A stretch of 60,704 nt of DNA, taken from NCBI GenBank assembly GCA_023379265.1, contig JAMCUI010000015.1:1-60704 (forward strand), read 5' to 3'. The stretch comes from Patescibacteria group bacterium (GTDB lineage Bacteria > Patescibacteriota > Microgenomatia > 2-02-FULL-39-11). The position numbers were made by a program, and so were the translations under genes. Numbering within the stretch: the stretch's first letter is position 1; each line of letters starts with the position of its first letter. Below, one piece after another: positions 13,290-54,863 of the stretch. The notes beneath the pieces are model-generated. The model was not told the origin of the DNA. It was given only the letters and a program-made list of their open reading frames with translations, and did not search any database.

Positions 13290-13949
13290 ATGGTTACAGA
13301 TATTAATAAAACTAAGAAGTTTGAAGATTTCTATACTCAATTCAAACTACGTTCTTATAAAAAAGGCGAAATGCTCATCAGATCAGATGATAATCCTCAA
13401 GGTATTTTTTGTTTAACAAAAGGATATGTCAGACAATACGCGCTTTCGACTGCCGGCATTGAACTTACCCTTCATATATTAAAACCAATCTCTTACTTTC
13501 CTATGGTATGGGCGATCAATGGTACTCCAAATATTTATAATTTTGAAGCTTTAACTGACGTTGAGGTAGGACGAGCACCCCGTGATGATGTAGTAAACTT
13601 CATTAAAGACAAACCGAAGATTATATTTGAACTAATGAGTGAGCTACTGGAAGATTATGCCGAATCTTTGACCCGTGTTGAGCATCTGGTTTTTAGCGAT
13701 GCTTATAGGCGGGTGATATCAGTGCTTTTGTATATTGCGAAGCATTTCGGTGAAAATGATGGTAGACAAATAATTATTGCTCATCGGTTTACCCATCAGG
13801 ATATTGCGACATTGGTTGGTGTTGCCCGAGAAACGGCCAGTATCGAAATGGTAAAATTGGAAAGAAAAGGATTGGTTGAATATAGCGATCATATGATGTT
13901 ATTTAAGAGTCTCGAAAGGCTGGAACATGAATTGCTGTCAGGCCACTAG
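13290..13949 (+). CDS. Crp/Fnr-family transcriptional regulator
   Basis: 219 aa with an N-terminal cNMP-binding-like beta-roll and a C-terminal HTH (HQDIATLVGVARETASIEMVKLERKG). Confidence 0.8.
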   Translation: MVTDINKTKKFEDFYTQFKLRSYKKGEMLIRSDDNPQGIFCLTKGYVRQYALSTAGIELTLHILKPISYFPMVWAINGTPNIYNFEALTDVEVGRAPRDDVVNFIKDKPKIIFELMSELLEDYAESLTRVEHLVFSDAYRRVISVLLYIAKHFGENDGRQIIIAHRFTHQDIATLVGVARETASIEMVKLERKGLVEYSDHMMLFKSLERLEHELLSGH

Positions 13950-38636: not shown

Positions 38637-40121
38637 ATGAAGAAATTTTTGGCTGGGTTTAACAAGCATATATATCTTTGGGGAACGGTTTTTTTCCTTG
38701 CGGTAAATCTATTCCAGCTGACGAGCATGCCTATATTCAACGATGAGGGAATCTATCTCCATTGGGGCCGCGAATTCTATCAGGGTTTAGGCAAAGGGTA
38801 TCCCCTTATGGTGGCAGTTGACGGCAAACAGACAGGAGTCCCTTTAGTATATGGGTTGTTGCAGTTTCTACCGATTGATCCTCTCTTGTCTGTCCGTTTT
38901 TTTAGCGTAGCCGTATCACTTGTTACATTTTTGGCCATCCTTGCCGTTTATAAAAAAGTCAGCGAGAAAAGACCGGATATCTTTTTGGTGCTTTTGCTGA
39001 CATTCAGCCCCTATCTTCTTTTTTTTGACCGGATGGCTCTTCCAGACGGATTGATTGCGGCATGTTATACATTGTCGGTTCTCATATCCCTCTCTTTATT
39101 TGAAAAACCGCAGATTATAAAGGGGTTGGCGCTGGGTGCGGTAATTGCCCTGGGATGGTGGTTTAAGTCAACCATACTTATCATACTGCCTCCATTTCTT
39201 ATCCTTTTGGTTTGGAGATTCAGGAAGAAAGATTTTTCTTCCGGGAGACTTATTGCGGCAGTTCTGGCAGGAGCTATGATTTTTCTTCTTATGGTTGCTC
39301 CGATAATCTTCCATCCTGATTACCAGAGGATGGCTTTTCCAGAAAGCAATAGAATTTACTCTTTTTCTGAAGTATTGCGCCAGGCGCCTAAGCTTTTTAC
39401 CGACAAAGCACCCCTTTATACAGCCTGGTTTGCCGATTATGCGACGCCTTTAGTCTTTATGTCATTTCTCTTGGGTATTTTGTGCCTGATAAAGAAAAAA
39501 GGCTACCGGCCTCTTTTTGTATTTCTGGTGGTGCCTATTCTTGCCGAAATATTTTTGGTCAAGATATTTTCTGCCAGATATATCGTTTATGTATTGCCTC
39601 TTTTTCTCCTTTTTTCCTATGAAGGCTTCTCTTTTATAAAACAAAAAAGTTGGAAGTATGCATTTTTATTTGCGACTCTCCTTTCATCCATGACAGTCAG
39701 TCTGCTCCTTATTTTTTATCCCGGGCGGTTTTACCAGCTGATGGAAAAATTTCCTAAAGGTCGTGAAGATCTTTACCAGTATTTTGACGGATGGACTTCA
39801 GGTTATGGGGTCAAAGAGGCGGCCGACTGGATAACAAAAGATGCGGGAGAAAGACTCAGTGTAGTCTTTGTCCGGGATGACAGCGGCAACCCAGAGGATG
39901 CGATGTATGTCTTCCTGCGGCGGGATAATATAAAAGTTTTCCCCATAAATCTTTTGGGCTATTTTGCCAGACAAAAGGACGTCAGGCTTTATTTTGTCTC
40001 AAGAGGTGTCCAGATGGGAGGAGTGGAAAAGTATGCACGGCTACTCAAAAGATATGATAAGCCTTTTGGGAATGAATATATAGGTATATATAATATTGCG
40101 CTTCCGGAATCGGGAAGTTAG
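38637..40121 (+). CDS. GT39/ArnT-like (PMT_2) membrane glycosyltransferase
   Basis: About 11 TM helices with a short C-terminal soluble domain. Start ambiguous (TTG 38613, ATG 38619, ATG 38637). Confidence 0.6.
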   Translation: MKKFLAGFNKHIYLWGTVFFLAVNLFQLTSMPIFNDEGIYLHWGREFYQGLGKGYPLMVAVDGKQTGVPLVYGLLQFLPIDPLLSVRFFSVAVSLVTFLAILAVYKKVSEKRPDIFLVLLLTFSPYLLFFDRMALPDGLIAACYTLSVLISLSLFEKPQIIKGLALGAVIALGWWFKSTILIILPPFLILLVWRFRKKDFSSGRLIAAVLAGAMIFLLMVAPIIFHPDYQRMAFPESNRIYSFSEVLRQAPKLFTDKAPLYTAWFADYATPLVFMSFLLGILCLIKKKGYRPLFVFLVVPILAEIFLVKIFSARYIVYVLPLFLLFSYEGFSFIKQKSWKYAFLFATLLSSMTVSLLLIFYPGRFYQLMEKFPKGREDLYQYFDGWTSGYGVKEAADWITKDAGERLSVVFVRDDSGNPEDAMYVFLRRDNIKVFPINLLGYFARQKDVRLYFVSRGVQMGGVEKYARLLKRYDKPFGNEYIGIYNIALPESGS

Positions 40122-40226
40122 GAATACGGGAAAAGGAATTTTTCTTGTCCCTTTCTACGGAACTTATACATTGAATACACGTGGCGTGAAGGTATAAATG
40201 CCCTACATAAATGCCCTTTCTACCTC

Positions 40227-40255
40227 TTGCACGGGAAAAAAGCTTAGTGTATAAT
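40227..40255 (+). promoter_or_regulatory. Sigma70-type promoter upstream of tuf
   Basis: TTGCAC, 17-nt spacer, TATAAT, 65 nt before the tuf ATG (SD TAAGGAGG). Confidence 0.55.
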
Positions 40256-40320
40256 TTCGCTACCCCAAATAATTTGGGAATATTTTTATTTTGTTATAAA
40301 CATCTAAGGAGGAAGTATTT

Positions 40321-41505
40321 ATGGCTACAGGAGTTTTTCAGAGAAGTAAACCCCATCTTAATATCGGGACTATCGGTCACGTTGATCACGGTAAGACTAC
40401 ACTGACTTCAGCAATTACACACGTGTTGGCCCAAAAAGGTATGGCCAAAGCTCTGAAATACGAAGAAATAGATAATGCTCCTGAAGAAAAAGCCAGAGGT
40501 GTCACAATAAATATCCACCACTCCGAGTATGAAACAGCCAAACGCCACTATGCACATATCGATGCCCCAGGACATGCAGATTACATAAAAAACATGATCA
40601 CTGGTGCAGCCCAAATGGATGGCGCCATTTTGGTGGTCTCTGCTCCTGATGGTCCGATGCCCCAGACAAGAGAGCACATACTTCTGGCACAACAGGTAAA
40701 CGTGCCGGCAATTGTCGTTTTTCTTAATAAGGTCGACATGGTATCGGATAAGGAACTTTTGGATCTGGTAGAGATGGAAATCAGAGAGCTTTTGACCAAA
40801 TACAAATTCCCGGGAGACAAAGTCAAAATTATAAGAGGCAGCGCCCTCAAGGCTCTGCAGGGAGACGCGGAAGCTATCAAGTCAATTGAGGCTCTAATGG
40901 ATGCGGTAGACAGCGAAATTCCCACACCGGTACGTGATACAGACAAACCGTTCCTTATGCCTATTGAGGATGTTTTCTCAATCAAGGGCCGAGGGACAGT
41001 CGTTACCGGCAGAGTGGAAAGAGGAAAGATAAAAGTCAACGAAGAAATAGAGATAGTCGGTATAAAGGCCACACAAAAGACAGTTATCACAGGGGTCGAA
41101 ATGTTCAGGAAAACTCTGGATGAAGCGATGGCCGGAGACAATGTCGGCCTTCTTCTAAGAGGTGTCGAGAAAAACCAGGTGGAGCGCGGACAGGTAGTAG
41201 CCAAGCCTGGCAGTATCACCCCTCATACAGAATTTGAGGCTGAGATTTATGTCCTGACGAAGGAAGAAGGAGGAAGGCATACGCCTTTCTTCACAGGATA
41301 CAGACCGCAGTTTTATGTAAAAACTACTGATATTACTGGCGAGATTACCCTTCCCAAGGGAGTGGAAATGGTGATGCCGGGAGACAGTATCAAGATGACG
41401 GCAAAACTCATCGTGCCTGTAGCTCTTGAGGAAGGCCAGAGATTTGCAGTAAGAGAAGGCGGACATACAGTAGGTGCGGGAGTAGTAACAAAAATACTAA
41501 AGTAA
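40321..41505 (+). CDS. tuf: Elongation factor Tu
   Basis: 394 aa with [17 protein letters not shown] and NKVD. Confidence 0.98.
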
Positions 41506-41583
41506 AGAGTTATTTGAAATTCCGCAGCTTCTAGCGGACATACAGTAGGTGCGGGAGTAGTAACAAAAATACTAAAGTAAAGA
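41459..41583 (+). repeat. Repeat-spacer-repeat: the 3' end of tuf (50 nt including the stop) repeated at +75 nt
   Basis: 41459-41508 is identical (50/50) to 41534-41583, with a 25-nt unique spacer. Confidence 0.9.
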
Positions 41584-41601
41584 AGTTTTAACAATAAGAA
41601 A

Positions 41602-41910
41602 ATGCCGAAGGGACGAATTCGCGTACGTTTAAAAGCTTATGATGGCAGAATCATTGATGATTCATGCCAGAAGATACTGGATACGGCCGTAAGGACCGGT
41701 GCCCGGGTGGTGGGACCAATACCTCTGCCGACGGAAAAACAGCATTTTTCCGTCCCAACATCCCCGTTTACCGATAAGGATAGCCGGAATGCGTTTATGG
41801 TGAAGATACATAAGCGCCTTATCGATATCATCGAGCCTACGGACAAGACTATTGACTCTTTAATGCATCTGGAACTGCCAGCAGGCGTGGACATAGAAGT
41901 AAAGATGTGA
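41602..41910 (+). CDS. rpsJ: 30S ribosomal protein S10
   Basis: 102 aa starting IRVRLKAYD; position after tuf. Confidence 0.95.
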
Positions 41911-42068
41911 AAGTAGAGTTGGACTTTGGGTCAAGAGGATTGTGTTGTAATTCAAGAGCAGGCGTGGACATAGAAGTAAAGATGTGAAAGTAGAGTTGGA
42001 CTTTGGGTCAAGAGGATTGTGTTGTAATTCAAGAGCAGGCGTGGACATAGAAGTAAAGATGTGAAAGT
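41880..42068 (+). repeat. 77-nt unit x 2.45 beginning 30 nt inside the 3' end of rpsJ
   Basis: 41881-41957 equals 41958-42034 (77/77). 42035-42068 repeats the first 34 nt. Each copy contains AGVDIEVKM plus TGA. Confidence 0.9.
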
Positions 42069-42096
42069 TCCAAAATGTCAGACGGGTTGATTTGGT

Positions 42097-42125
42097 TTGA
42101 TATATCAGACTTAAATCTGTATAAT
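42097..42125 (+). promoter_or_regulatory. Consensus sigma70 promoter inside the rpsJ-rplC spacer
   Basis: TTGATA, 17-nt spacer, TATAAT. Confidence 0.55.
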
Positions 42126-42193
42126 TGTAAAAGATCATGATGGTGAAAAAACACCGTTATAAAACAAAATAATCGGATGTTGCGGGATATTTA

Positions 42194-42219
42194 TAGCCCC
42201 TTATCCGGGGCTATTTTTT
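42194..42219 (+). terminator. Rho-independent terminator 19 nt upstream of rplC
   Basis: TAGCCCCttatccGGGGCTA followed by TTTTTT. Confidence 0.75.
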
Positions 42220-42238
42220 GTTTGAATGATAATAAATT

Positions 42239-42892
42239 ATGATACAAGCAATTTTAGGCATAAAAAAAGATCAGTCGCAGACTTTTACACCGGATGGGAA
42301 AAGAATCCCGGTGACACGCGTATCGACTGCTTCATGCCGGGTGGTAAACGTAAAAACTGAAGATAAAGACGGTTACAATGCTATCCAGCTTGGTATTGGT
42401 AGCAAAAGAGCCGTTACTCTCACTAAACCTGAATTGGGAAATTTGAAAAAGGCGGGGTTGGACAAAAATCCACCCCGTTTTTTGCGGGAAGTCAGCATAG
42501 AGAACAAAGAAGATTTTACCGATGAGAAACTCAAACCGGGTTCAGAAATAAAAACTTCTGACGTATTTAAGGAAGGTGATGTTATCCAGGTGACCGGTGT
42601 GACCAAAGGTAAAGGTTTTCAGGGAGCAGTAAAAAGACACCACTTCAAGGGAGGTCCCAGGACCCACGGACAGTCAGATCGCGAAAGGGCTCCCGGCTCA
42701 ATAGGCCAGACTACTACTCCGGGAAGAGTCTACCGCGGCAAAAGAATGGCAGGACATATGGGCAGCGATACAGTGACAGTCAAAAATCTGAAAGTAGTCA
42801 AAATTGATGATGAAAAAAACATATTGACAGTTTTGGGTGTGGTACCTGGTGGAAGAAATTCGCTGCTTGTTATTAAAAAGTTAACAAATTAA
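42239..42892 (+). CDS. rplC: 50S ribosomal protein L3
   Basis: 217 aa with GVTKGKGFQG; S10-operon order. Confidence 0.95.
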   Translation: MIQAILGIKKDQSQTFTPDGKRIPVTRVSTASCRVVNVKTEDKDGYNAIQLGIGSKRAVTLTKPELGNLKKAGLDKNPPRFLREVSIENKEDFTDEKLKPGSEIKTSDVFKEGDVIQVTGVTKGKGFQGAVKRHHFKGGPRTHGQSDRERAPGSIGQTTTPGRVYRGKRMAGHMGSDTVTVKNLKVVKIDDEKNILTVLGVVPGGRNSLLVIKKLTN

Positions 42893-42962
42893 TTAGGGGA
42901 AGATTAGAACAGGGGCAGCAAACTAAATCTGCAATTATCATTACCAAATTATAAGTACAAAT

Positions 42963-43841
42963 ATGCCAAGGGTAAAAAAAGATAAAGAGCAAATAGAGAC
43001 AAAGAAAGATCTGAAAATTGACGTATACAACCTGAGCGGAAAAGTGACTGGGAAAGCGGATCTGCCGGGTGAGTTTTTTGCGGCAAAGGTATCAATGCCT
43101 CTTATAAATCAGGCTATCCGTGTATATACCGCAAACCAGCGTGCAGGTACCCACGACACAAAAACCCGGACTTTTGTTATCGGTTCCACCAAAAAAATTT
43201 ACCGCCAGAAGGGTACAGGGCGTGCCAGACACGGGGATATCAAAGCCCCGATTTTTGTCGGTGGAGGAGTGGCTCACGGCCCAAAACCAAAAGACTATTC
43301 CCTTTCTTTGCCAAAAAAGATGAGACAAAACGTTTTTTGCGCATCACTCACTGACAAGTTCCAGAATGGGAAGCTAAAAGTAGTGACGGGATTGGCAGAG
43401 ATCGAGCCTAAGACAAAAAATGTCAACCTGATGCTCAAGAATTTGGGATACTTGGCTGACGATGGAGCACTTGGAAAAAGCGTCATATTGGTATTGCCTT
43501 CAGTCATGAGGAATGTGATTTTGGCCGGAAGGAATATCGAAAATCTCTCTGTTTCCCAAGTGGAAAATTTGAGCGCTTATGATGTAATGAGGGTGCAAGA
43601 AGTGCTTTTTATGAAAGAGTCTCTCAAGGTTTTGGATGACAGAAGCGCTTCAAAAGTTAAAGAAGACAAAAAGGGGAAAAAGGCAATAGAAATGGATTTG
43701 AGTCTCGGGACGGGAAAGCCGGAAGAAAAGAAGCCAAAAACGGTAACAGCAAAGAAAGCAAAAAAGGAAGAGAAGCCAGCCAAAAAGACTGTAAAGAAAG
43801 CAGTCAAAAAGGTAAATGGAAAATCAGCAAAAAAGAAATAA
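42963..43841 (+). CDS. rplD: 50S ribosomal protein L4 with an approximately 85-aa Lys-rich C-terminal extension
   Basis: L4 core (QKGTGRARHGDIKAPIFVGGGVAHGPKP) followed by a KKPKTVTAKKAKKEEKPAKK... tail. Confidence 0.93.
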   Translation: MPRVKKDKEQIETKKDLKIDVYNLSGKVTGKADLPGEFFAAKVSMPLINQAIRVYTANQRAGTHDTKTRTFVIGSTKKIYRQKGTGRARHGDIKAPIFVGGGVAHGPKPKDYSLSLPKKMRQNVFCASLTDKFQNGKLKVVTGLAEIEPKTKNVNLMLKNLGYLADDGALGKSVILVLPSVMRNVILAGRNIENLSVSQVENLSAYDVMRVQEVLFMKESLKVLDDRSASKVKEDKKGKKAIEMDLSLGTGKPEEKKPKTVTAKKAKKEEKPAKKTVKKAVKKVNGKSAKKK

Positions 43842-43854
43842 GTTGATATTTTAT

Positions 43855-44151
43855 ATGTCAGAAAACGTAATTATACGACCAATAATAACTGAAAAATCAT
43901 TGATAGACGCAAAAAACGGAATCTTTACATTTGCAGTGGAAGGGAAAGCGACAAAATTCCAGATAAAGAAAGCGATAGAGTCGATGTTTAGCGTCCATGT
44001 CAAATTGATCACAACCGTAAAGACTAAAGGTAAAAAAAGGACTGTAGGCAGGAAAAGGCTGACGGTATATAAGCCTGATTTGAAAAAAGCCAGAGTCAAA
44101 TTGGCAAAGGATGAGAAAATAGATTTGTTTGAAGTAGGAGAAGGAAAATGA
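43855..44151 (+). CDS. rplW: 50S ribosomal protein L23
   Basis: The ATG at 43855 gives [15 protein letters not shown]. Confidence 0.93.
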
Positions 44152-44921
44152 CAAGATTTAGAAATTTCATGGAACCGAAATCACTCATGAGTATATTACC
44201 GAAAAATTCCGGAAGGAATAATTCCGGGAAAATTACAGTGAGGCATCAGGGAGCGCGTGAGAAAAGGTATTACCGTGAGATTGATTTTAAGAGGGATAAA
44301 TTTGGGGTAGAGGGAAAAATCATTGCCTTTGATTATGACCCAAATAGGAATGTGGAGATAGCCCTGGTGCTTTACAAAGATGGAGAAAAAAGGTATATTT
44401 TGAAACCTCAGGGTTTGAAGGTGGGGGATATGGTGCTTTCCAAGCAGGATGCCGAGGCCAGATTGGGCAACAGTCTTTTTTTGGCAAATATACCTATTGG
44501 TACTTCTGTACACAATGTTGAACTAGCAGAGGGAAGGGGTGGGCAAATGGTAAGAGGCGCCGGAACTGCAGCAGTAGTCTTGGCAAAAGAAGGAAGTTTT
44601 GCCCACGTCAGGTTGCCTTCAGGTGAGATCAGGATGATAAAAGGCAACTGCTATGCCACAGTGGGACAGCTGGCAAACTCCGAATGGAAATCACAAATTA
44701 TTGGGAAGGCCGGAAGGAAAAGGCATATGGGGATAAGGCCACAAGTACGCGGAACAGCAATGAATCCCCGTTCTCATCCGCATGGTGGAGGAGAAGGTAG
44801 AAGCGGAGAGGGTCTCAAACAGCCCAAGACTCCATGGGGGAAGCCTGCAAGAGGTTTGAAAACCAGAAAACCGGGCAAGTTCAGCGATAAATATATATTA
44901 CAAAGGAGAAAGAAGAAATAA
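44148..44921 (+). CDS. rplB: 50S ribosomal protein L2
   Basis: [37 protein letters not shown] and [13 protein letters not shown]. Shorter N-terminus than E. coli L2. Confidence 0.95.
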
Positions 44922-44922
44922 T

Positions 44923-45207
44923 ATGAGCAGAAGCCTGAAGAAAGGTCCATACATAAACCAGAAATTGCTGAAAAAAGTAATCGTGATGAAAAATTCCGGG
45001 CGCGGCGAAGCAGTGAAGACTTGGGATAGGAGTTGCCAGATACCGCCTGAATTTGTCGGCCAGAAGCTGGCTGTTTATAACGGAAGGCATTTTATAGAAG
45101 TGTTTGTGACTGAGGCGATGGTCGGCCATAGGCTTGGAGAATTTGCGCCAACCCGCACATTTAGGGGACATGGACAAGTGACAAAGAGAGTTTTGGAGAA
45201 GACATAA
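44923..45207 (+). CDS. rpsS: 30S ribosomal protein S19
   Basis: [10 protein letters not shown]...[16 protein letters not shown]. Confidence 0.96.
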
Positions 45208-45210
45208 TCT

Positions 45211-45708
45211 ATGAATAACACGGTTTATATAAAATATTTGCGGATATCCTCCAAGAAAATGCGGGGATTGGCAAAAATAGTAGTAGGTATGCCGCCCAAA
45301 GTCGCTTTGGACAGGCTGTCTGTAGTCAGCGGAAAAGCCGGCAGAATGATGAGTCTGGTCGTAAAATCGGCCATGGCCAATGCGACCAACAATATGAAGC
45401 TAAACGCCGCAGACTTGCGTATCAAAAGGATAGAGGTTTTGGAAGGACCTGCATTCAAGCGCTGGCAACCGGTATCCAGGGGGATGGCGCACCAGATAAA
45501 AAAAAGAACTACGCATTTGAGAATAGAGCTTGAAGAGAAACAGGGTAAGACGCTTCCCGCAGCAGCAGGAAAGGATAATAAGCCGGTTCAGGAAAAGAAA
45601 AGAGTAGAAAAAGCAGAAGTAAAAGCGCTGCCACAAGAAAAAGAAAAGAATATGAAAAAAGAAGAAATTGTGACTGAAAGGAGAGAAAAAAGTGGGACAA
45701 AAAGTTAA
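45211..45708 (+). CDS. rplV: 50S ribosomal protein L22 with a Lys/Glu-rich C-terminal extension
   Basis: L22 core followed by about 50 extra residues; operon order. Confidence 0.9.
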   Translation: MNNTVYIKYLRISSKKMRGLAKIVVGMPPKVALDRLSVVSGKAGRMMSLVVKSAMANATNNMKLNAADLRIKRIEVLEGPAFKRWQPVSRGMAHQIKKRTTHLRIELEEKQGKTLPAAAGKDNKPVQEKKRVEKAEVKALPQEKEKNMKKEEIVTERREKSGTKS

Positions 45709-46351
45709 TCCTAAAGGTTTTAGAATAGGTCCTCTTTATAGTTGGGAGTCAAGATGGTTTGCCAACAAGAAGGATTATAAGAACTTTGTGGTGGAAGATG
45801 CCAAACTGCGCAAATCACTTCTTGCCAGGCTGCAGCCTGCAGGCATAGTGAAGGTGGAAATTGAAAGATCGATAAACAAGATCAATATTATCCTTAACGT
45901 GGTGCGTCCCGGAATGGTGATAGGTCGGGGCGGAAGCGGTATGGAAACGGTAAAAAAATTCATAATTGATACAATTTTTGCCCACAGGAGAAGCATAAAG
46001 CAAAATATCAAGAAAGCATCCCTCAAAGTGGATATTAGGGTAGAACCGGTAAAGGAGCCTTATCTTTCTTCATATTTTGTCGCTTCCCAAATTGCCGAAC
46101 AGTTGGCCAAAAGGCTCAATCATAAGAGGGCAGTGTCCATGGCGATGGAAAAAGTGAAGACTGCCGGTGCAAGAGGAGTAAAAATTGTCCTATCAGGAAG
46201 GATAGGCGGGGCGGAAATCTCAAGACGAGAAAGCTATAAGACTGGTACTATACCCTTGTCGACATTACGTGAGGATGTTGATTTTGCGGCTGTACCATCC
46301 CTGACTAAATCCGGTTACATAGGCGTGAAGGTCTGGATTTGCAAGTCATAA
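45692..46351 (+). CDS. rpsC: 30S ribosomal protein S3
   Basis: GTG start; MGQKVNPKGFRIG; KH domain. Confidence 0.95.
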   Translation: MGQKVNPKGFRIGPLYSWESRWFANKKDYKNFVVEDAKLRKSLLARLQPAGIVKVEIERSINKINIILNVVRPGMVIGRGGSGMETVKKFIIDTIFAHRRSIKQNIKKASLKVDIRVEPVKEPYLSSYFVASQIAEQLAKRLNHKRAVSMAMEKVKTAGARGVKIVLSGRIGGAEISRRESYKTGTIPLSTLREDVDFAAVPSLTKSGYIGVKVWICKS

Positions 46352-46378
46352 AAAAGCAAAAGATTCATTACTTATATT

Positions 46379-46786
46379 ATGTTAGTACCAAAAAGAGCAA
46401 AATACAGAAAACAGTTCCGGGGCACAATGGGAGGCCAATCGCTTCGGGGTAGTTACCTTTCTTTTGGCGAATACGGCCTAAAGGCTATGTCGGCCAGCTG
46501 GGTGTCATCCCGTCAGATAGAGGCTGGAAGGCGCGTTTTGACTAGATATACAGCAAAGGGAGGTCGTGTCTGGATCAGGATATTTCCTGATAAGCCAGTT
46601 TCTGACAAACCGCCAGAAGTAAGAATGGGAGGGGGCAAGGGAGATATAGTTGATTATGTAGCAGTGGTGCGGCCGGGAAGGATAATTTTTGAGATGGGGG
46701 GAATCCCTGAGGAATTGGCAAAAGAAGCCCTTGAGTCTGCTTCTAGTAAATTACCACTGAAGACAAAATTTCTGAAAAGGGACTAA
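46379..46786 (+). CDS. rplP: 50S ribosomal protein L16
   Basis: MLVPKRAKYRKQFRG... Confidence 0.96.
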   Translation: MLVPKRAKYRKQFRGTMGGQSLRGSYLSFGEYGLKAMSASWVSSRQIEAGRRVLTRYTAKGGRVWIRIFPDKPVSDKPPEVRMGGGKGDIVDYVAVVRPGRIIFEMGGIPEELAKEALESASSKLPLKTKFLKRD

Positions 46787-46790
46787 AAAT

Positions 46791-47003
46791 ATGAAAAAAA
46801 GTGTTTTTAAGGACTTGAGGAACAAATCGGATGAAGAACTGAAAAAGATGGTGGCTGATACCAAAAAGGAGCTTGTAAAGATTATGATCCAGCATAAATC
46901 AGGCAAACTCAAAGACGTCATGCTTTCCAGAAGAAAAAAGAAGGATATTGCCAGGATGTTAACAATTTTGCGTGAGAAAAAGATTACGCAGGAGAGAGCA
47001 TAA
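46791..47003 (+). CDS. rpmC: 50S ribosomal protein L29
   Basis: 70 aa; position between rplP and rpsQ; typical LRNKSDEEL helix. Confidence 0.9.
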   Translation: MKKSVFKDLRNKSDEELKKMVADTKKELVKIMIQHKSGKLKDVMLSRRKKKDIARMLTILREKKITQERA

Positions 47004-47007
47004 GTAT

Positions 47008-47280
47008 ATGAAAGCAGAAAAAGAAACAACCAGGAAGCATAAAATCACAAAAACGCTGAAAGGAAAAGTAGTGTCCAATAAAATGACCAGGACTATAGTG
47101 GTTGAAGTGGGCAGGCAAAGAGTGCACCCTCTTTACAAGAAAATCATGAGAAGATCCAAAAGATATAAGGTCGAGGGAGATGAAAAATCAGTAAATATAG
47201 GAGATATGGTAAAGATTGGTGCGGTGAGACCGATCTCAAAAGAAAAACATTTTCAGTTAATAGGTAAAGTAGGAAAATAA
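47008..47280 (+). CDS. rpsQ: 30S ribosomal protein S17
   Basis: ATG at 47008; [17 protein letters not shown]...HPLYKK. Confidence 0.93.
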
Positions 47281-47281
47281 T

Positions 47282-47656
47282 ATGATCCAACTTAGAAGCA
47301 TCGTAAATGTAGCAGACAACAGTGGAGCGCACAGGCTTTCTGTCATCCAGGTGATGGGGCACGGTAATAGGACTCTAGCTTACTTGGGGGATGTAGTAAA
47401 CTGTGTTGTAAAAAAAGCGGACCCTGAAGGTATGGTCAAGACCCATGAGAAAGTGAAAGCGGTAATTGTACGCTCCCGCAAAGAAAAAAGAAGGCTAGAC
47501 GGTTCATATATCAGGTTTGACGACAATGCGGTTGTGATAATTGACAATCCCAAGGATAAAAATCCCAAAGGTACCAGGATTTTTGGGCCAGTTGCCCGTG
47601 AGCTCAAGGACTTGGGTTTTGCCAAGATTGTTTCCATGGCCCAGGAGGTATATTGA
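47282..47656 (+). CDS. rplN: 50S ribosomal protein L14
   Basis: [16 protein letters not shown]... Confidence 0.96.
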
Positions 47657-47743
47657 CAAAAGTTGCGGGTAGAATTCAGATTTATTATTCTGACAATCTG
47701 TAATCTGATTCCGTAATTCAAGTTTATTAAAGCAACAAATCAT

Positions 47744-48049
47744 ATGAAACTGAAAAAAGGCGACGAAGTCATAATTACATCCGGAAAGGATAAGGGTAAA
47801 AAAGGCAAGATAGAGAAAGTATTTAGAAAAAGCAATACGGTACTTTTGCCGGGTTTGAATGTTTTTAAGAGACATATGAAAAAAAGGGACGAAAACAATC
47901 CCGGAGGGATAATAGATTTCCCCCGACCGGTAAAAGTGGCAAACGTGGCCCTTATCTGTCCCAAGTGCGGAAAGCCAACCAGAATAGGATATAAAGTCCA
48001 GGGAGATACCAAAAGCCGTATTTGCAGAAAATGTGATTCAATATTATAA
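47744..48049 (+). CDS. rplX: 50S ribosomal protein L24
   Basis: KKGDEVIITSGKDKGKKG KOW motif. Has a CPKCG...CRKC zinc-ribbon-like C-terminus. Confidence 0.93.
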   Translation: MKLKKGDEVIITSGKDKGKKGKIEKVFRKSNTVLLPGLNVFKRHMKKRDENNPGGIIDFPRPVKVANVALICPKCGKPTRIGYKVQGDTKSRICRKCDSIL

Positions 48050-48053
48050 TCTT

Positions 48054-48623
48054 ATGTCTAATCTTTTTAAGTATTATCAGGAAGAAGGAAGAAAAATTTT
48101 GGCCAAGGATTTGGGCATTGGGAATATCATGATGGTGCCCAAGCTGGTAAAGATTGTAGTCAATATCGGCCTTGGTGAGGCGCTGACAGACAAGAAGGTG
48201 CTTGAAGTGGCAGCAGGGCAATTGTCCCAGATTACTGGGCAAAAACCTTCCATAAGGCGTGCTAAACATGATATTTCCTCTTTCAAGTTGCGTCAGGGAG
48301 ATGCGGTAGGACTAAAAGTGACCCTTAGGGGAAGAATGATGTATGATTTTTGTGAGAAGCTGGTGAAGATAGTTTTACCAAGAATCAGGGATTTTCGGGG
48401 AGTGCCAGATACCGGTTTTGATAAGGAAGGCAATTTCACATTGGGATTATCCGAACAGATAGTATTTCCGGAGATAGAATACAGCCAGGTAGATAAGATA
48501 AGAGGACTGGAGATGACCTTTGTCATTTCCGGTAAAGGAAAGAAAGAAGCAAGGAGGCTTTTGGAGGTTTTGGGTATGCCGTTTAAGAAACCGGTTGCAG
48601 CAAAGAGGGCAGAAGGGAAATAA
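48054..48623 (+). CDS. rplE: 50S ribosomal protein L5
   Basis: ATG at 48054; [16 protein letters not shown]. Confidence 0.95.
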
Positions 48624-48640
48624 TAATTTTTTATAAAAAT

Positions 48641-48826
48641 ATGGCTAAAGTATCTGATATAGTCAAATTCAAGAAAAAACAGAAATTCAATGTACGCGCG
48701 CATAACCGCTGTCAGCTATGCGGAAGAAACAGGGGATATATGAGAAAATTCGGTTTATGCCGGCTTTGCTTCCGCGAGTTAGCCCTGAAAGGTGAATTGC
48801 CAGGAGTAGTAAAGGCTAGCTGGTGA
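48641..48826 (+). CDS. rpsN: 30S ribosomal protein S14, type Z (zinc-binding, 61 aa)
   Basis: [10 protein letters not shown]...CRLCFRE. Confidence 0.95.
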
Positions 48827-48994
48827 GGCGTAAGACAGACTTAATTCGTAGGTTTTGATGAGTGACGGAAACAGCGGGAGTAGTAAAGGCTAGCTGGTGA
48901 GGCGTAAGACAGACTTAATTCGTAGGTTTTGATGAGTGACGGAAACAGCGGGAGTAGTAAAGGCTAGCTGGTGAGGAGTAAGACAGACTTAATT
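48803..48994 (+). repeat. 74-nt unit x 2.6 beginning 24 nt inside the 3' end of rpsN
   Basis: 48803-48876 equals 48877-48950 (74/74). 48951-48994 repeats the first 44 nt with one mismatch (48977). Confidence 0.9.
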
Positions 48995-49010
48995 ATTGAA
49001 TAAAAAATAT

Positions 49011-49406
49011 ATGATGACTGATCCGATTTCAGATTTGCTGACACAGATAAAAAATGCCTATATGGCGGAAAAAAAGACGATTGAGGTATCCCACAGTAAT
49101 ATGCAGGAGTCTCTTGTAAAGCTTCTTTCCCGAGAAGGTTATCTGGGTAAAATTGAGATAAACAAAAAAGATAAAGTGAAAAAGACCATATCGGTAGAAA
49201 TGGTTTATGAGGATAAGAAACCCAGATTGACAGAGATAGTCCGTGTCAGCAAACCCAGCAAGAAAGTATATATCTCTAAAAATGAGATACCCAGAGTCTT
49301 GGGAGGGTTGGGGATTGTGGTCATATCCTCTCCTGCAGGTTTAATCTCTGGCAGGGAAGCAAGGAAAAAAGGTATAGGCGGAGAGTTAATCTGCAAAATT
49401 TGGTAA
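49011..49406 (+). CDS. rpsH: 30S ribosomal protein S8
   Basis: ATG at 49011; MMTDPISDLLTQIKNA...GGELICKIW. Confidence 0.95.
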   Translation: MMTDPISDLLTQIKNAYMAEKKTIEVSHSNMQESLVKLLSREGYLGKIEINKKDKVKKTISVEMVYEDKKPRLTEIVRVSKPSKKVYISKNEIPRVLGGLGIVVISSPAGLISGREARKKGIGGELICKIW

Positions 49407-49476
49407 GCCTTTTTAGAATTTAGATAAATACTGATGATAAAGAATAGACGGAAAGCTGATCTATAAGATTTGGTAA
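49374..49476 (+). repeat. Diverged second copy of the 3' end of rpsH at +70 nt
   Basis: 49374-49406 and 49444-49476 match at 26 of 33 positions with no gaps, and both end in TAA. The peptides are IGGELICKIW* and IDGKLIYKIW*. Confidence 0.8.
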
Positions 49477-49495
49477 AGTTTATTTGTATAAAAAT

Positions 49496-50056
49496 ATGTC
49501 AAGAATAGGACAAAAACCCATTGCAAAGGAACAAGATGTCAAAGTAGAAGCGAGCGGCAGTGCCGTACACGTGGAAGGGTCAGCCGGAAAGATGGATTTG
49601 ACGTTGCCGGAAGGTTTTTCGCTCACTACAGGAGAAAAAGAATTACTTCTAAAGATCGAAAATGAAAGAATTGCCGACGGCAAAATTCATGGGCTTTTCC
49701 GCAGTCTTTTGCAAAATGCAGTGACAGGAGTAAAAAAGCCGTGGACCAAGACGCTGGAGCTTGTGGGAGTAGGTTATAGAGCACAGACAACTGGTAGCGA
49801 CCTGGTCCTGAATTTGGGTTTTTCCCACCCGATAAACATAAAAGCACCGGCAGGGATTACATTCCAAGTGACTGAAAACAAAGTGACTGTTTCCGGGGTA
49901 GATAAATATATGGTGGGAGAAATGGCGGCAAAAATAAGAAGGTTGAAACCACCCGAACCTTATAAGGGGAAAGGGATAAGATATACAGGTGAACATATAA
50001 GAAAGAAACTCGGTAAAGCTGCAAAGGCGGTTGGTGGGGCAGCAGGCGCAAAGTAA
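49496..50056 (+). CDS. rplF: 50S ribosomal protein L6
   Basis: ATG at 49496; MSRIGQKPI... Confidence 0.95.
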   Translation: MSRIGQKPIAKEQDVKVEASGSAVHVEGSAGKMDLTLPEGFSLTTGEKELLLKIENERIADGKIHGLFRSLLQNAVTGVKKPWTKTLELVGVGYRAQTTGSDLVLNLGFSHPINIKAPAGITFQVTENKVTVSGVDKYMVGEMAAKIRRLKPPEPYKGKGIRYTGEHIRKKLGKAAKAVGGAAGAK

Positions 50057-50131
50057 AAACTGTCTTAAGAGTCTCAAAAAAGCATTAAGTTTTAGCAACT
50101 GGAGCTAAATAAAAATTAAAGCAAATTGACC

Positions 50132-50500
50132 ATGATAATAAAACATATAAAAGGTAATAAAAGAAGGAAATTGAGATCAAGGATAAAGGTTGTCACAAAA
50201 GGAAGAGGTGCCGGCAAGCCGCGACTTTCAGTATACCGGTCCAGCCGCTATCTCTATGCCCAACTCATTGACGATGTCAAGGGCACAACACTTGTTGCGG
50301 TTTCGGAAAAAGAGTTGAAGCTTACAGGGGATAAACAACCGACAAAAACAGAGAGGGCCAAACTTTTAGGTGCGTCTCTGGCACAAAAAGCTAAGAAAAA
50401 GGATATTAAAAAGGTAGTTTTTGACAGGGGCAGTTATCAATATCACGGCCGAGTGAAGAGTTTTGCTGACGAGGCAAGAGACGGCGGCCTGGAGTTTTAA
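50132..50500 (+). CDS. rplR: 50S ribosomal protein L18
   Basis: RLSVYRSSRYLYAQLIDD...FDRGSYQYHGRVKSFADEARDGGL. Confidence 0.95.
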   Translation: MIIKHIKGNKRRKLRSRIKVVTKGRGAGKPRLSVYRSSRYLYAQLIDDVKGTTLVAVSEKELKLTGDKQPTKTERAKLLGASLAQKAKKKDIKKVVFDRGSYQYHGRVKSFADEARDGGLEF

Positions 50501-50504
50501 TAAT

Positions 50505-50972
50505 ATGAATTCACACAGATATCCCAATGCAGTGCCTTCAGAATTTGAAGAAAAAGTGATTCAGGTCAACCGTGTTTCAAAAAAGACAAAAGGCGGTAAC
50601 AAAATAGGATTTTCCGTCCTGGTTGTAGTCGGAGACAAAAAAGGCCGGGTGGGAGTAGGTTTGGGTAAGGCGGCTGATGTCGCATCAGCGGTAAAAAAAG
50701 CCATGTCATACGCTAAGAAGCATCTTATTACAGTGCCTATGGTCAAGACGTCCATCCCGCATGAGATAAGGATGAAATATGGCGCGTCTAAAATACTTCT
50801 GAAACCGGCCCCGGGAGGTACAGGAATTAGGGCAGGAGGAGCAGTCAGGGCGGTAGTTGAGGCTGCAGGAGTAAGGGATATTGTCTCAAAGATACTCGGT
50901 ACTGACAATAAAGCGACAAACGTCTATGCTACGTTTGCGGCATTAAAAAGATTAAGGAGTCAGGTAGTATGA
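50505..50972 (+). CDS. rpsE: 30S ribosomal protein S5
   Basis: ATG at 50505; VIQVNRVSKKTKGG... Confidence 0.95.
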   Translation: MNSHRYPNAVPSEFEEKVIQVNRVSKKTKGGNKIGFSVLVVVGDKKGRVGVGLGKAADVASAVKKAMSYAKKHLITVPMVKTSIPHEIRMKYGASKILLKPAPGGTGIRAGGAVRAVVEAAGVRDIVSKILGTDNKATNVYATFAALKRLRSQVV

Positions 50973-51409
50973 TAGAACTGAATAAATTGTCTAAAATTGC
51001 AAAAAGAGGGAAAAAACGCCTCGGTCAGGGACACGGAAGCGGTAGAGGTAAGACTGCCGGGCGCGGCACTAAAGGCCAGAAAGCCAGGGGGAAAATGTCC
51101 ATGACATTTTCAGCAGGCAACCTTTCGCTTGTAAAAAGGCTACCTCTGATACGCGGCAAGTTGCGTAACCAGTCAATATTAAAGAAGAAACTGCCGGTCA
51201 ATGTCAAATTCCTCAATTTCCTTCCGGAAAATTCAGAAGTTGACCTGGACTTTCTCATAAAGAATCATATAGTAAAGGAAGATGTAAAAGAAACTGGCGT
51301 CAAGATACTGGGTGATGGGGAGTTGAAAATTGCCCTGACGGTAAAATTGCCTTGTTCCAAAGGCGCCAGGAAGAAAATTGAAAAAGCAGGCGGTAAGGTG
51401 GAAAATTAA
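50969..51409 (+). CDS. rplO: 50S ribosomal protein L15
   Basis: KRLGQGHGSGRGKTAGRGTKGQKAR. Overlaps the rpsE stop (ATGA), so no rpmD lies between them. Confidence 0.95.
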   Translation: MIELNKLSKIAKRGKKRLGQGHGSGRGKTAGRGTKGQKARGKMSMTFSAGNLSLVKRLPLIRGKLRNQSILKKKLPVNVKFLNFLPENSEVDLDFLIKNHIVKEDVKETGVKILGDGELKIALTVKLPCSKGARKKIEKAGGKVEN

Positions 51410-51427
51410 AGAGGAATTTTCCCTTGA

Positions 51428-52714
51428 ATGAACAAATATATTAACTCTATAATAAATGCCTTCAAATCCAAGGAGCTGCGGCAGAAACTAATTATCACAG
51501 CCTTCATTTTCCTAGTCTTCAGAATTTTTGCACATATACCTTTACCAGGGGTCAACTTGATAAAGCTGCGTAGCCTTTTTTCCCAGAGTGAGTTCTTGGG
51601 ACTTTTGGATATATTTTCCGGAGGTACGCTGGCCAACTTTTCGGTAATGGCCATAGGGCTAAACCCCTATATAAACGCTTCGATCATATTGCAGCTTCTG
51701 ACAATGGTTTTCCCCAAGCTTGAGGAACTTTCCAAAGAAGGCGAATACGGCCAGGAGAAAATAAACCAGTATACAAGGCTTCTGACAATTCCTCTTGCAG
51801 CTATACAAGCTGTAGGCATGTATGCGCTCCTCAAAAGCCAAAACATCATCGGCCTTCTGCCTCCCCTGACTCTTATATCGATGGTGGTCACGATGACTAC
51901 GGGGACAATACTCCTGATGTGGTTTGGTGAGCTCATCTCGGAATTTGGCGTAGGTAACGGCATCTCACTTCTTATCTTTGCCGGAATTGTTGGTCGTCTG
52001 CCGGTAGTGGCCGGACAGGCATTTACGATAGTCAATCAGGAAATGCTTGTAAATGCCGTGATATTTATATTTCTGGCGCTTCTTGTGGTAGCTGGCATTG
52101 TCTTTATTAATGAAGCGGTGCGTCAGGTGCCGGTACACTATGCTAAAAGAATTAGGGGTAACCGTATGTACGGAGGTTCGACCACATATTTGCCTTTGCG
52201 TCTCAACCAGGCCGGTGTCATACCCATCATTTTTGCCGTTTCCATAGTCCTTATCCCCTCTCTTGTGGGAAAATTTGTCGCCCTCATACCCAATAAGTTT
52301 CTGGCTGGAATTGCTGGAGGGATTGTCGCGGTTTTCAACACTAACGGTTTTGTTTACAACCTGGTCTACTTTTTACTGGTCATAGGCTTCACATACTTTT
52401 ATACTGCTGTTACTTTTAACCCGCAAAAGATAGCGGGAGAGATACAAAAATACGGAGGTTTTATCCCTGGCATCAGGCCCGGTTCGCCCACAGCCCAGTA
52501 TCTCAACTATATACTGACCAGGATTACACTGGCAGGGGCAATATTCCTGGGACTTGTCGCGATCCTTCCGGCGCTTATGAAACAAGCTACGGGCATTGCT
52601 TCCCTTACCATCGGCGGAACAGGTATACTTATAGTCGTGGCGGTAGTTTTGGAGACGGTCAAAAGTATCGAAGCGCAGCTTCTGATGAGGAATTATGAAG
52701 GGTTTTTGAAATAG
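51428..52714 (+). CDS. secY: Preprotein translocase subunit SecY
   Basis: 428 aa, 10 TM segments, conserved operon position. Confidence 0.96.
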
Positions 52715-52754
52715 TTGTTAGTTAAAGTATTAACTGTTTGACTATAAGGATTGT

Positions 52755-53333
52755 ATGCACTTAATTATTTACGGTCCCGAAGGTTCAGGCAAAGGCACAC
52801 AGGCAAAACTGCTTGCTGAAAAATTAAAAGTTCCGGTTTATACATCAGGAGACTTGGTTCGACAGGCTGCAGCCAAGGACAAAAGCCCTTTGGGAGACGC
52901 TTGCCGTACGGCTTTGACTGAAGGCAAGTATGTGGATGATGGTAATATGTTTCAGCTTTGGGAAAACAGGTTGCAGACTGATGAGGCAAAAAAGGGATTT
53001 TTACTGGATGGTTTTCCCAGAAACAAGAAGCAGGCTGAATTCCTTTTTGTGCATGTGAAAGAATACGGTTATGGTATAGACAGGCTTATTTACCTAAAAT
53101 TGTCTGATGCCGAGTCCATAAAGAGGTTGTCTTTGCGGCACAGGACTCTTTTTGCCGGCAGTACCGTCAACCATGATGATCCGGAACGCGTCGCCCAGAG
53201 ACTGAAAGTCTATAGGGAAAAAGAAGAAGATATGCTCTCCTTTTTCAGGAGTAAATATCTGATTTTGGAAATAGATGCGGCTGGTACGATAGAAAAAGTA
53301 CATGAGGATATTGTCAGAGCCCTGAAAATTTAG
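52755..53333 (+). CDS. adk: Adenylate kinase (short, no zinc lid)
   Basis: P-loop GPEGSGKGTQ, LLDGFPR. Confidence 0.9.
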   Translation: MHLIIYGPEGSGKGTQAKLLAEKLKVPVYTSGDLVRQAAAKDKSPLGDACRTALTEGKYVDDGNMFQLWENRLQTDEAKKGFLLDGFPRNKKQAEFLFVHVKEYGYGIDRLIYLKLSDAESIKRLSLRHRTLFAGSTVNHDDPERVAQRLKVYREKEEDMLSFFRSKYLILEIDAAGTIEKVHEDIVRALKI

Positions 53334-53420
53334 CCGGATTATGTTAAAGGAAGAGAATTACGACTTGTGGAGCTTAAAAACATATTGCAGCGTCTTCATC
53401 TTTGACCCATTTTGTGCTCG

Positions 53421-53957
53421 ATGAAATTCTCGGTCTTTGTCATTTCAGGAATGCCAGGTAGCGGTAAGACTGCCGCATCAGAATACTTCCAGAAAAGGCA
53501 TATTCCCGTAGTAAGAATGGGAGAATTGACTCAGGAAGAGCTTGTGAAAAGGAAGCTTGCAGCCGGCTGGGAAAATGAGAAATTTGTCTGGACAGATTTG
53601 AGGAAGACTGAGGGGAAAGATATTTATGCCAAACTGGCAGCCCAAAGGGTAACGGAGTTTGAGGCGAAGGGAAAAATAGTAATTGAGGGGATGAGGACCT
53701 TGGCTGAGTATGATTTTTTTGCCAATATGTTTCCGGGTTTTAAGACAATCTTTATTGAAGCCGGAAAGGAGAAGAGATATCAAAGGTTGCAGGAGAGGAG
53801 AGTCAGGCCATTGAGCACAAAAGAGGCAAGGCAAAGAGATGAAGATGAGGCAAAAGGTTTTGACTTGGTAAAACTTAGGGATAAAGCTGATTTTATAGTA
53901 GGAAATGACGGTTCGTTTGAAGAATTTTTTGAAAAACTCCGGAAAATTATTGACTGA
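53421..53957 (+). CDS. Second P-loop nucleotide kinase-like protein (archaeal UPF0200-like)
   Basis: The ATG at 53421 gives MKFSVFVISGMPGSGKTAASEYF...VVRMGE. Lies between adk and map. Confidence 0.65.
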   Translation: MKFSVFVISGMPGSGKTAASEYFQKRHIPVVRMGELTQEELVKRKLAAGWENEKFVWTDLRKTEGKDIYAKLAAQRVTEFEAKGKIVIEGMRTLAEYDFFANMFPGFKTIFIEAGKEKRYQRLQERRVRPLSTKEARQRDEDEAKGFDLVKLRDKADFIVGNDGSFEEFFEKLRKIID

Positions 53958-54035
53958 TTTTATATGATACATCTGAAAAAACCTGAAGAAATGGAAACTT
54001 TACCAAATCGAAAATTATAGACGGTAAAGACAAAT

Positions 54036-54863
54036 ATGATTCATTTAAAAACAGTTGAAGAGATAGAAAAAATGAAAAAAGGAGGCAAGATCCTCCATGA
54101 CGTGCTGGGGATTTTGGTAAAGGAAGCCAAACTGGGAGTCTCACTGATATCACTTGACCAAATGGCAGAAAGGCTCATCGTGGAGAGGGGTGGGACATCA
54201 TCTTTTAAGCGGGTAAAAGGTTACCACTGGACTATCTGCAGTTGTGTCAATGATGTGGTGGTACACGGTATTCCCGATGAGTACAAGATAAAGACTGGTG
54301 ATATTGTCGGTATAGACTGCGGGGTATATTTTGAAGGTTTCCATACGGATGCGGCCTGGACGGTATCAGTGGGGAACAGCGACAGTAAAGTGAAAAAATT
54401 TCTGGATACTGGGGAGGCAGCCTTCAGGAAGGCAATAAGCCAGGTAAAATTGGGAAATTACATTTATGACATATCAAAAGCCATACAGGATACTGTGGAG
54501 AAAGAAGGCGGGTATGGAGTATCAAGGACTCTTGTCGGACACGGGGTGGGGAGGCAGCTTCACGAGGAGCCGGAGGTGCCGGGTTATGTCAGTAGTCCCA
54601 GTACCTCATTCCATAAATTTAACCGTATGGACAATCTTCGAGAAGAGGACGAAAAATTAAGGGAACAAAGTATTAGGGAGTCTACGCCAAGGCTGGTTCC
54701 GGGCCTAGTGATTGCCATTGAGGTGATTTATAATATGGGAAGTCCGGACGTGGTTTACAAGGGAAATGACGGGTGGACAATTGTCACGAAAGATGGTAAA
54801 ATATCAGGACTCTTTGAAGCGACCGTGGCGGTAACTTCCCACGGTTGCGTTGTTTTGACTTAG
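54036..54863 (+). CDS. map: Methionine aminopeptidase type I with an approximately 27-aa insertion
   Basis: Metal ligands in GIDCGVYFEGFHTD, VGHGVGRQLHEEP and IAIE. Extra segment SSPSTSFHKFNRMDNLREEDEKLREQSIRESTPR. Confidence 0.9.
   Translation: MIHLKTVEEIEKMKKGGKILHDVLGILVKEAKLGVSLISLDQMAERLIVERGGTSSFKRVKGYHWTICSCVNDVVVHGIPDEYKIKTGDIVGIDCGVYFEGFHTDAAWTVSVGNSDSKVKKFLDTGEAAFRKAISQVKLGNYIYDISKAIQDTVEKEGGYGVSRTLVGHGVGRQLHEEPEVPGYVSSPSTSFHKFNRMDNLREEDEKLREQSIRESTPRLVPGLVIAIEVIYNMGSPDVVYKGNDGWTIVTKDGKISGLFEATVAVTSHGCVVLT

Follow-up and report, generated by a model that had tools for sequence, protein, structure and literature searches.

A decaying second copy of the rpsH 3' end in a Patescibacteria ribosomal operon as a probable relic of junction-spanning tandem duplication

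In the ribosomal operon cluster of an uncultured Patescibacteria-group (CPR) bacterium, a second and diverged version of the last codons of rpsH is found downstream of the stop codon of this gene, and the substitutions that separate the two versions resemble those of an evolving coding sequence. The question raised by this locus is whether the downstream copy, or the current end of the gene, came from a different rpsH allele, as the original prediction proposed, or whether both copies descend from a single resident allele.

The window, i.e., the whole stretch of DNA that was analyzed, is an entire contig of 60.7 kb, in which rpoB and rpoC are followed by rpsL, rpsG, and fusA, then by about 27 kb of non-ribosomal genes, and finally by tuf and the S10/spc/alpha cluster. 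The non-ribosomal genes that separate fusA from tuf (12744-40320) include a Crp-type regulator, GNAT, a P-type ATPase, SHMT, CbiMQO, Fur, ZnuABC, a beta-lactamase-like gene, and PMT_2; in the relatives L161 and L164, tuf comes immediately after fusA. An IS1595-family transposase is located at the start of the contig (139-1044).

The rpsH end, its echo, and the rpsH-rplF junction

The live rpsH gene ends in the decapeptide IGGELICKIW, which agrees with the S8 family consensus, and this end (X1) is followed by a filler (Y), the echo of the gene end (X2), and a short spacer before rplF (Table 1). X1 and X2 align without gaps at 26 of 33 positions at an offset of 70, and all seven differences are transitions, with A, A, C, G, A, T, and G at these sites in the downstream copy. 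Two details of the original prediction were also recovered, given that both copies end in TAA and that, in the frame of X2, TGA TGA TAA stands before it.

Table 1. Coordinates of the rpsH-rplF junction and of the other duplicated junctions (positions of the window)
Feature	Position	Strand	Basis or state
tuf	40321-41505		
tuf end: X1 41459-41508, Y 41509-41533, X2 41534-41583	41459-41583	+	period 75; X copies 50/50; two copies
rpsJ end array	41880-42068	+	77-nt unit x 2.5, perfect
rpsN end array	48803-48994	+	74-nt unit x 2.6, 1 mismatch
rpsH (ribosomal protein S8), live, 131 aa	49011-49406	+	ORF; PF00410 on the 99%-identical P0001
rpsH end (X1 to X2)	49374-49476	+	period 70; 26/33
X1, live 3' end of rpsH, 10 codons and TAA, ATAGGCGGAGAGTTAATCTGCAAAATTTGGTAA	49374-49406	+	three derived synonymous GC-to-AT changes vs L001
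Y, 37-nt filler between X1 and X2	49407-49443	+	65% identity to the L001 Y
X2, dead echo of the rpsH 3' end, ATAGACGGAAAGCTGATCTATAAGATTTGGTAA	49444-49476	+	26/33 to X1; 28/33 to the live L001 end
Spacer between X2 and rplF, 19 nt	49477-49495	+	
rplF (L6), live	49496-50056	+	ORF; gene call and PF00347 on L155
rplF end: X1 50040-50060 GCAGCAGGCGCAAAGTAAAAA, X2 50096-50116 GCAACTGGAGCTAAATAAAAA	50040-50116	+	offset 56; 16/21
kinase-map junction: a1 53940-53957, b1 53964-53999, a2 54009-54027, b2 54036-54071	53929-54072	+	period 72
secY-adk junction (L001 only, none in the window)			period 73; adk start duplicated

The displaced second end proved to be genuine, as had been claimed, in that it lies far beyond chance and is found in five other assemblies. 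Seven clusters of self-matches of at least 26/33 at offsets of 20-300 occur in the window, while the 12 composition-matched Markov shuffles that served as the chance control gave 0.08 clusters on average, and in 440 kb of random sequence of local composition no match of the rpsH 33-mer attained as much as 22/33. When 74 ORF ends in the window were scanned, a downstream echo above the control maximum was found only for tuf, rpsJ, rpsN, and rpsH.

The X1-Y-X2 arrangement is base-for-base identical in the NCBI MAG contig L155 and in the Logan contigs L156-L158, which come from three different SRA runs, while a diverged orthologous X1-Y-X2 is carried by L001, an independently assembled MEGAHIT MAG whose sequence runs colinear to the window at about 93% identity; the co-linearity is that of assembled contigs (L155, L156-L158, and L001). 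Given its presence in these five assemblies, including one at ~93% identity, the echo is not an assembly chimera. The original prediction had named a strain-variant chimera as the finding that would count against it, and the arrangement was instead found to be inherited.

No S8 relative above 58% identity was found in a metagenome scan, and the protein database holds a 3-member S8 cluster (P0001, which includes the window's own S8 protein, P0121) with the next best match at 63% or less. As no close S8 relatives were found, there are no intermediates with which the rpsH duplication could be dated.

In distant relatives, in which S8 is 56-63% identical, the rpsH-rplF spacers measure 19-53 nt and an echo is undetectable, and the 85-nt spacer of L166 is likewise without a clear echo. 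X2 and the 19-nt spacer together correspond to the compact junction of these relatives, which would be the ancestral state. A candidate reading in which Y is the ancestral spacer and X2 was inserted later was rejected for both rpsN and rpsH, given that X2 plus the short spacer is, at both genes, the compact junction of the distant relatives.

The filler Y may be what decay has left of the rpsH-rplF spacer and of the rplF start in the first copy. The Y of L001 aligns colinearly with the spacer and rplF start (p about 0.03, permissive gapped alignment), and the Y of the window follows the same order without reaching significance (p of 0.11-0.23). On both strands, neither the rest of the window nor the 170 fetched loci yielded a source of the Y fillers.

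No function of the echo was detected. A search of 40000-53500 against Rfam gave no match at E<=1, a consensus scan of the rpsH-rplF spacer revealed no promoter-like or terminator-like pattern, and the units folded no better than their shuffles (z of -0.26 in the window and -1.87 in L001). A structured cis-regulatory RNA, such as an r-protein leader or a terminator, was rejected on the basis of these Rfam, folding, and consensus scans. A diversity-generating retroelement was also considered and rejected, given that the differences are not adenine-specific, that no RT was found in the ORFs scanned, and that the target is an essential ribosomal protein.

The starts of rpsN (48628-48652), rplF (49483-49507), and rpsH (48996-49016) share an A/T-rich leader of the TATAAAAATATG type, without a Shine-Dalgarno sequence, which suggests that initiation at these three genes may be SD-independent.

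The rpsJ-rplC spacer presents a near-consensus promoter (TTGATA-17-TATAAT, 42097-42125), a mini-ORF of 11 codons (42138-42173, MMVKKHRYKTK), and, at 42193-42224, a strong terminator hairpin (ATAGCCCC...GGGGCTAT with a T-run). The distant relatives L161, L164, and L167 share both this hairpin and the GGATTTTGGG motif upstream of it. These spacer features (42097-42224) had no Rfam match and are a candidate for an uncatalogued leader or attenuator before rplC in this CPR clade.

Direction of change in the two copies

The seven differences between X1 and X2 were polarized with L001, the two copies of which (ATAGGCGGAGAGCTGATCTGCAAGATCTGGTAA and ACAGGCGGAGAGCTGATCTGCAAGATCTGATAA) are identical at 31 of 33 positions. 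All seven changes are GC-to-AT transitions, three of them in the live end and four in the echo. In X1, a C-to-T and a G-to-A change converted CTG to TTA, and a G-to-A change converted AAG to AAA, all of which are synonymous. X2 retains the ancestral CTG and AAG codons, and its changes (GGC to GAC, GAG to AAG, and TGC to TAT) replace G with D, E with K, and C with Y; it is nearer to the live end of L001 (28/33) than to its own live end (26/33).

The constraint on these codons can be read from the S8 family, in which the two glycines and the glutamate of the terminal decapeptide are invariant (122/122) and the cysteine is found in 116 of the 122 homologs. The peptide IDGKLIYKIW of the echo violates three of these positions, i.e., an invariant G, the invariant E, and the near-invariant C.

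The original prediction counted three of the seven substitutions as synonymous and read them as a sign that the copy had evolved as coding sequence. The count is correct, but the synonymous changes arose in the live gene, and the notion of coding-type evolution in the echo is not supported by its own four changes, which break the G, E, and C positions. The changes in the live end are all synonymous given that purifying selection permits nothing else, and the synonymous differences between X1 and X2 thus reflect purifying selection on the live copy and not a constraint on the echo, which, to judge from its substitutions, evolves without coding constraint.

The rates of change point in the same direction. 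The live end differs from its L001 ortholog at 4 of 33 positions, in a gene in which the other 33-nt bins have 0-5 differences and in which 19 transitions and 5 transversions separate the window from L001. On the other hand, X2 and Y differ from their L001 orthologs at 7/33 and 13/37 positions (21% and 35%), as opposed to 6% in the gene.

Given that the L001 copies are identical at 31 of 33 positions, the duplication was of the resident allele, in place, and involved no import of another. The question of which rpsH copy is native, which the original prediction posed, is answered by the L001 polarization: both copies come from the resident allele, and the echo represents the ancestral resident state.

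Duplications at neighboring junctions

When the whole window was searched for near repeats and for echoes of the starts and ends of genes, the rpsH pair proved to be one of six junction duplications (tuf, rpsJ, rpsN, rpsH, rplF, and kinase-map), to which secY-adk is added in L001, and the periods are of 70-77 bp in six of these seven. All six duplicated junctions of the window lie in 41-54 kb, with none in 0-40 kb. Gene-end echoes are rare among 3439 ORF ends surveyed in about 2 Mb of ribosomal loci of other bacteria and archaea, and nearly all of the echoes in this survey are from the window's own lineage.

The kinase-map junction, the clearest of these cases, presents the end of the upstream gene (a1), a dead map start (b1), a dead gene end (a2), and the live map start (b2), in this order. 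The dead halves are diverged but recognizable (b1/b2, p about 0.001; a2/a1, p 0.01), and the arrangement, which is also present in L155 and L001 (period 75), is a plain tandem duplication of the gene end, the spacer, and the start of the next gene. In L001, the duplication of the adk start (13817-13935, period 73 bp) lies right 3' of secY.

At the rplF end, the echo keeps the ancestral GCT GGA GCT of the live L001 gene, and the live end of the window has changed to GCA GGC GCA, which is synonymous. When the Y segments were compared with the downstream sequence, a stringent local alignment gave weak significance for rpsN alone, and a permissive gapped alignment was significant only for the L001 rpsH and for the map control; for tuf, rpsJ, and rplF, any resemblance of Y to what lies downstream is not significant.

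The tuf, rpsJ, and rpsN arrays vary even between close strains. Compared with L155, which is 99.6-99.9% identical, the window has two copies instead of one at tuf, three instead of one at rpsJ, and three instead of two at rpsN, these being numbers as assembled from short reads, in which copy number is unreliable. L155, L169, and L001 lack the tuf unit, the rpsJ array has 1.5 units with a homologous Y in L001 and a single copy in L155, L169, and L170, and the rpsN array is one unit shorter in L155 and L001; the Logan contigs begin within the last rpsN X copy.

The X copies also vary together within genomes. At rpsJ, all three window copies have AGCAGG, as opposed to AGCGGG in both L001 copies, and the rpsN copies (GTAGTAAAGGCTAG vs GTGGTAAAGGCAAG) likewise co-vary. 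Two window copies of rpsN also read GAGGCG and the remaining one GAGGAG, as opposed to GAGATG in both copies of L155. This within-genome co-variation at rpsJ and rpsN indicates concerted evolution, and the tuf, rpsJ, and rpsN arrays would be the younger members of the series, still growing and shrinking between strains. The rpsH echo is the oldest-looking of the junction duplications in the tuf/S10/spc/alpha cluster.

The rpsN stop TGA (48824-48844 of the window and its repeats) is followed in frame by GGC GTA AGA CAG ACT TAA, and the TAATTATTGA found after this TAA matches the stop codon and spacer of L165, which suggests either an insertion of 18 nt or a new upstream stop in the window lineage. 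The rplF-rplR spacer of L001 (11045-11200) contains an additional 113 unique nt, among them a GTTCCG...CGGAAC hairpin, and the distant relative L164 has a 16-nt echo of the rpsJ end at 3354-3402, with a period of 33.

Origin of the duplications and comparison with known systems

The rpsH echo is most probably the decayed half of a local tandem duplication that spanned the gene junction, and we infer that it is now a neutral relic. A segment of ~70-78 bp, made up of the last ~35 nt of rpsH, the stop codon, the ~19-nt spacer, and the first rplF codons, would have been duplicated in tandem in the common ancestor of the window genome, L155, and L001. This duplication may have occurred through replication slippage or unequal sister-strand exchange at a short A-rich microhomology; A-runs are found at the presumed boundaries of the unit (GGAAAAAAGG before X and GACAAAAACC in rplF).

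Following such an event, the first copy would provide the end of rpsH and the second the start of rplF, and both genes would remain intact. A junction duplication of ~75 bp would be tolerable in a packed and essential operon given that each gene retains one intact copy. The redundant halves would then become junk, i.e., the spacer and rplF start of the first copy would turn into Y, and the rpsH end of the second copy into X2.

X2 may have been held near X1 for some time by unequal exchange or gene conversion, as in L001, where the copies are still 31/33 identical, and may then have escaped and decayed under the GC-to-AT transition bias of the lineage, while the live end would have gained only synonymous GC-to-AT changes. 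The coding-like pattern between X1 and X2 would thus result from the asymmetry between the live copy and the echo in the changes that each accepts. Unequal exchange between short direct repeats would homogenize X and, at times, remove a unit without leaving a scar, and the rpsH and rplF echoes would be frozen and decaying because they have diverged too far for recombination.

Some features of the series are less readily accommodated. The combination of a perfect X with an unrelated Y, at tuf, rpsJ, and rplF, requires the model to homogenize X and not Y, and the clustering of the periods at 70-77 bp is not predicted by simple slippage; by a rough estimate, such clustering is very unlikely under uniform lengths over the detectable range. 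Perfect direct repeats of 35-50 nt should be deleted fast, and L155 is already without two of the arrays, although those of rpsJ and rpsN persist over ~7% divergence to L001, which may reflect either a low deletion rate or selection on the spacer. At tuf alone, the recent insertion of a novel filler is kept as an alternative of low probability, given that neither relative has the tuf unit.

A broader process, by which this lineage would repeatedly insert junction units of ~72-77 bp in its most highly expressed operons, at no fewer than seven junctions and with some units kept as homogenized variable arrays, is a rather doubtful proposition. Weak processing of Okazaki flaps, or a ruler of ~7 helical turns in the replisome or nucleoid, are possible causes of such a process, and the spacers could alternatively be retained for uncoupling the translation of neighboring cistrons.

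The import of an allele, by which the current or the displaced end would have come from a different rpsH through the integration of an element or homology-facilitated illegitimate recombination, can claim that the X-Y-X topology resembles an att-type gene-end duplication, that Y has no detectable source in the window, and that the tuf Y is missing from both relatives. It is nevertheless very improbable, in that the near identity of the L001 copies points to the duplication of one allele, lineage-specific changes on both copies explain every difference in the window, and the rpsH end differs from L001 to an ordinary extent. The integration or replacement at the gene end that the original prediction envisaged is contradicted by the mere 37 nt between the copies and by the lack of an integrase among the window ORFs scanned, where an IS1595 transposase is located 48 kb away. 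Five other nearby junctions are similarly duplicated, and at map both halves are local copies. It is also highly unlikely that the units were produced by an off-target integrase (a Cas1-Cas2 "neo-CRISPR" or a staggered-cut insertion), with X as a target-site duplication and Y as captured foreign DNA. The Y of 25-42 nt without a local homolog and the unit length of 70-77 nt, reminiscent of a CRISPR repeat plus spacer, would fit this mechanism, and some published accounts document off-target spacer integration; however, X (33-50 nt) and Y (25-42 nt) both vary, whereas integrase rulers fix each of them, the Y segments are identical within multi-copy arrays, and Y is recognizably local at map and at the L001 rpsH. 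The scan of window ORFs yielded no cas gene, and viral contigs gave two exact 18-mer matches to Y, which is about the chance expectation.

Selection for the units, which would lengthen compact junctions (for translation uncoupling or for processing or standby sites) while X2 and the spacer keep the native start context, is improbable, if somewhat less so than either of these insertions. It draws on the restriction of all units to the highly expressed tuf/r-protein cluster (41-54 kb, with none in 0-40 kb), on the match of X2 and its short spacer to the ancestral junction before the next start, and on the persistence of the deletion-prone rpsJ and rpsN arrays across ~7% divergence. The units have, however, no conserved structure, Rfam family, promoter, or terminator, the rpsH X2 and Y change at about neutral rates relative to the gene, and L155 lives without the tuf and rpsJ units. 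An assembly artifact, be it a chimera of strain variants or a de Bruijn loop that was collapsed or expanded, has the least to recommend it and is extremely unlikely: all three perfect arrays of the window do exceed those of L155 in copies, and copy number from short reads is unreliable, but the divergence of the rpsH pair makes a graph loop impossible, and the arrangement recurs in assemblies from different samples and assemblers, with an evolved ortholog in L001.

Taken as a relic of tandem duplication, the rpsH echo alone is ordinary, and its value is methodological. Since selection screens the changes that the live copy can accept, a gene end and its dead duplicate will automatically come to differ in a coding-like manner, and such a pattern is not evidence of allele import. 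About seven junction duplications of similar size, together with their copy-number turnover and concerted evolution, provide a rare view of the birth of spacers in streamlined genomes and hint at a lineage-specific peculiarity of replication or repair; the inserting process, if true, would be one way in which compact operons acquire intercistronic spacers.

The arrangement shares with the att-site duplications of gene ends (tRNA, tmRNA, and protein genes) the presence of two direct copies, the upstream one of which completes the gene. It differs from them in that there is no element (37 nt), both copies are of the same resident allele, adjacent genes are affected, and 5' ends are also duplicated (map, and adk in L001). 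The perfect 74-77-bp units of tuf, rpsJ, and rpsN, with copy numbers that vary at 99.6-99.9% identity, are similar to minisatellites or VNTRs, but these units begin inside the coding sequence and include the stop codon, and the rpsH member is past the array stage and decaying.

Defects in 5'-flap processing (yeast rad27/FEN1 and the E. coli polA 5'-nuclease) result in duplications flanked by short direct repeats. Such duplications are likewise of tens of bp and bounded by microhomology, and a defect of this type is, as a lead only, a plausible source of the lineage-specific excess and its limited size range.

The closest analogy is probably found in the tandem-duplication/random-loss process of animal mitochondria, which, in the accounts given in PMC9494961 and PMC3025957, leaves spacers of decayed gene fragments, the copies sometimes evolving in concert. 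In both systems, a head-to-tail duplication extends over gene boundaries in a compact genome, each part retains one live copy, the redundant parts decay into spacer, and similar copies are homogenized. The unit here is, in contrast, of ~56-77 bp and comprises only the end of one gene, a spacer, and the start of the next, the gene order is unchanged, the host belongs to the Patescibacteria, and about seven junctions of one cluster are involved. A local tandem duplication across a junction is a known kind of event, and what is unusual here is its recurrence within one operon cluster and its regular size.
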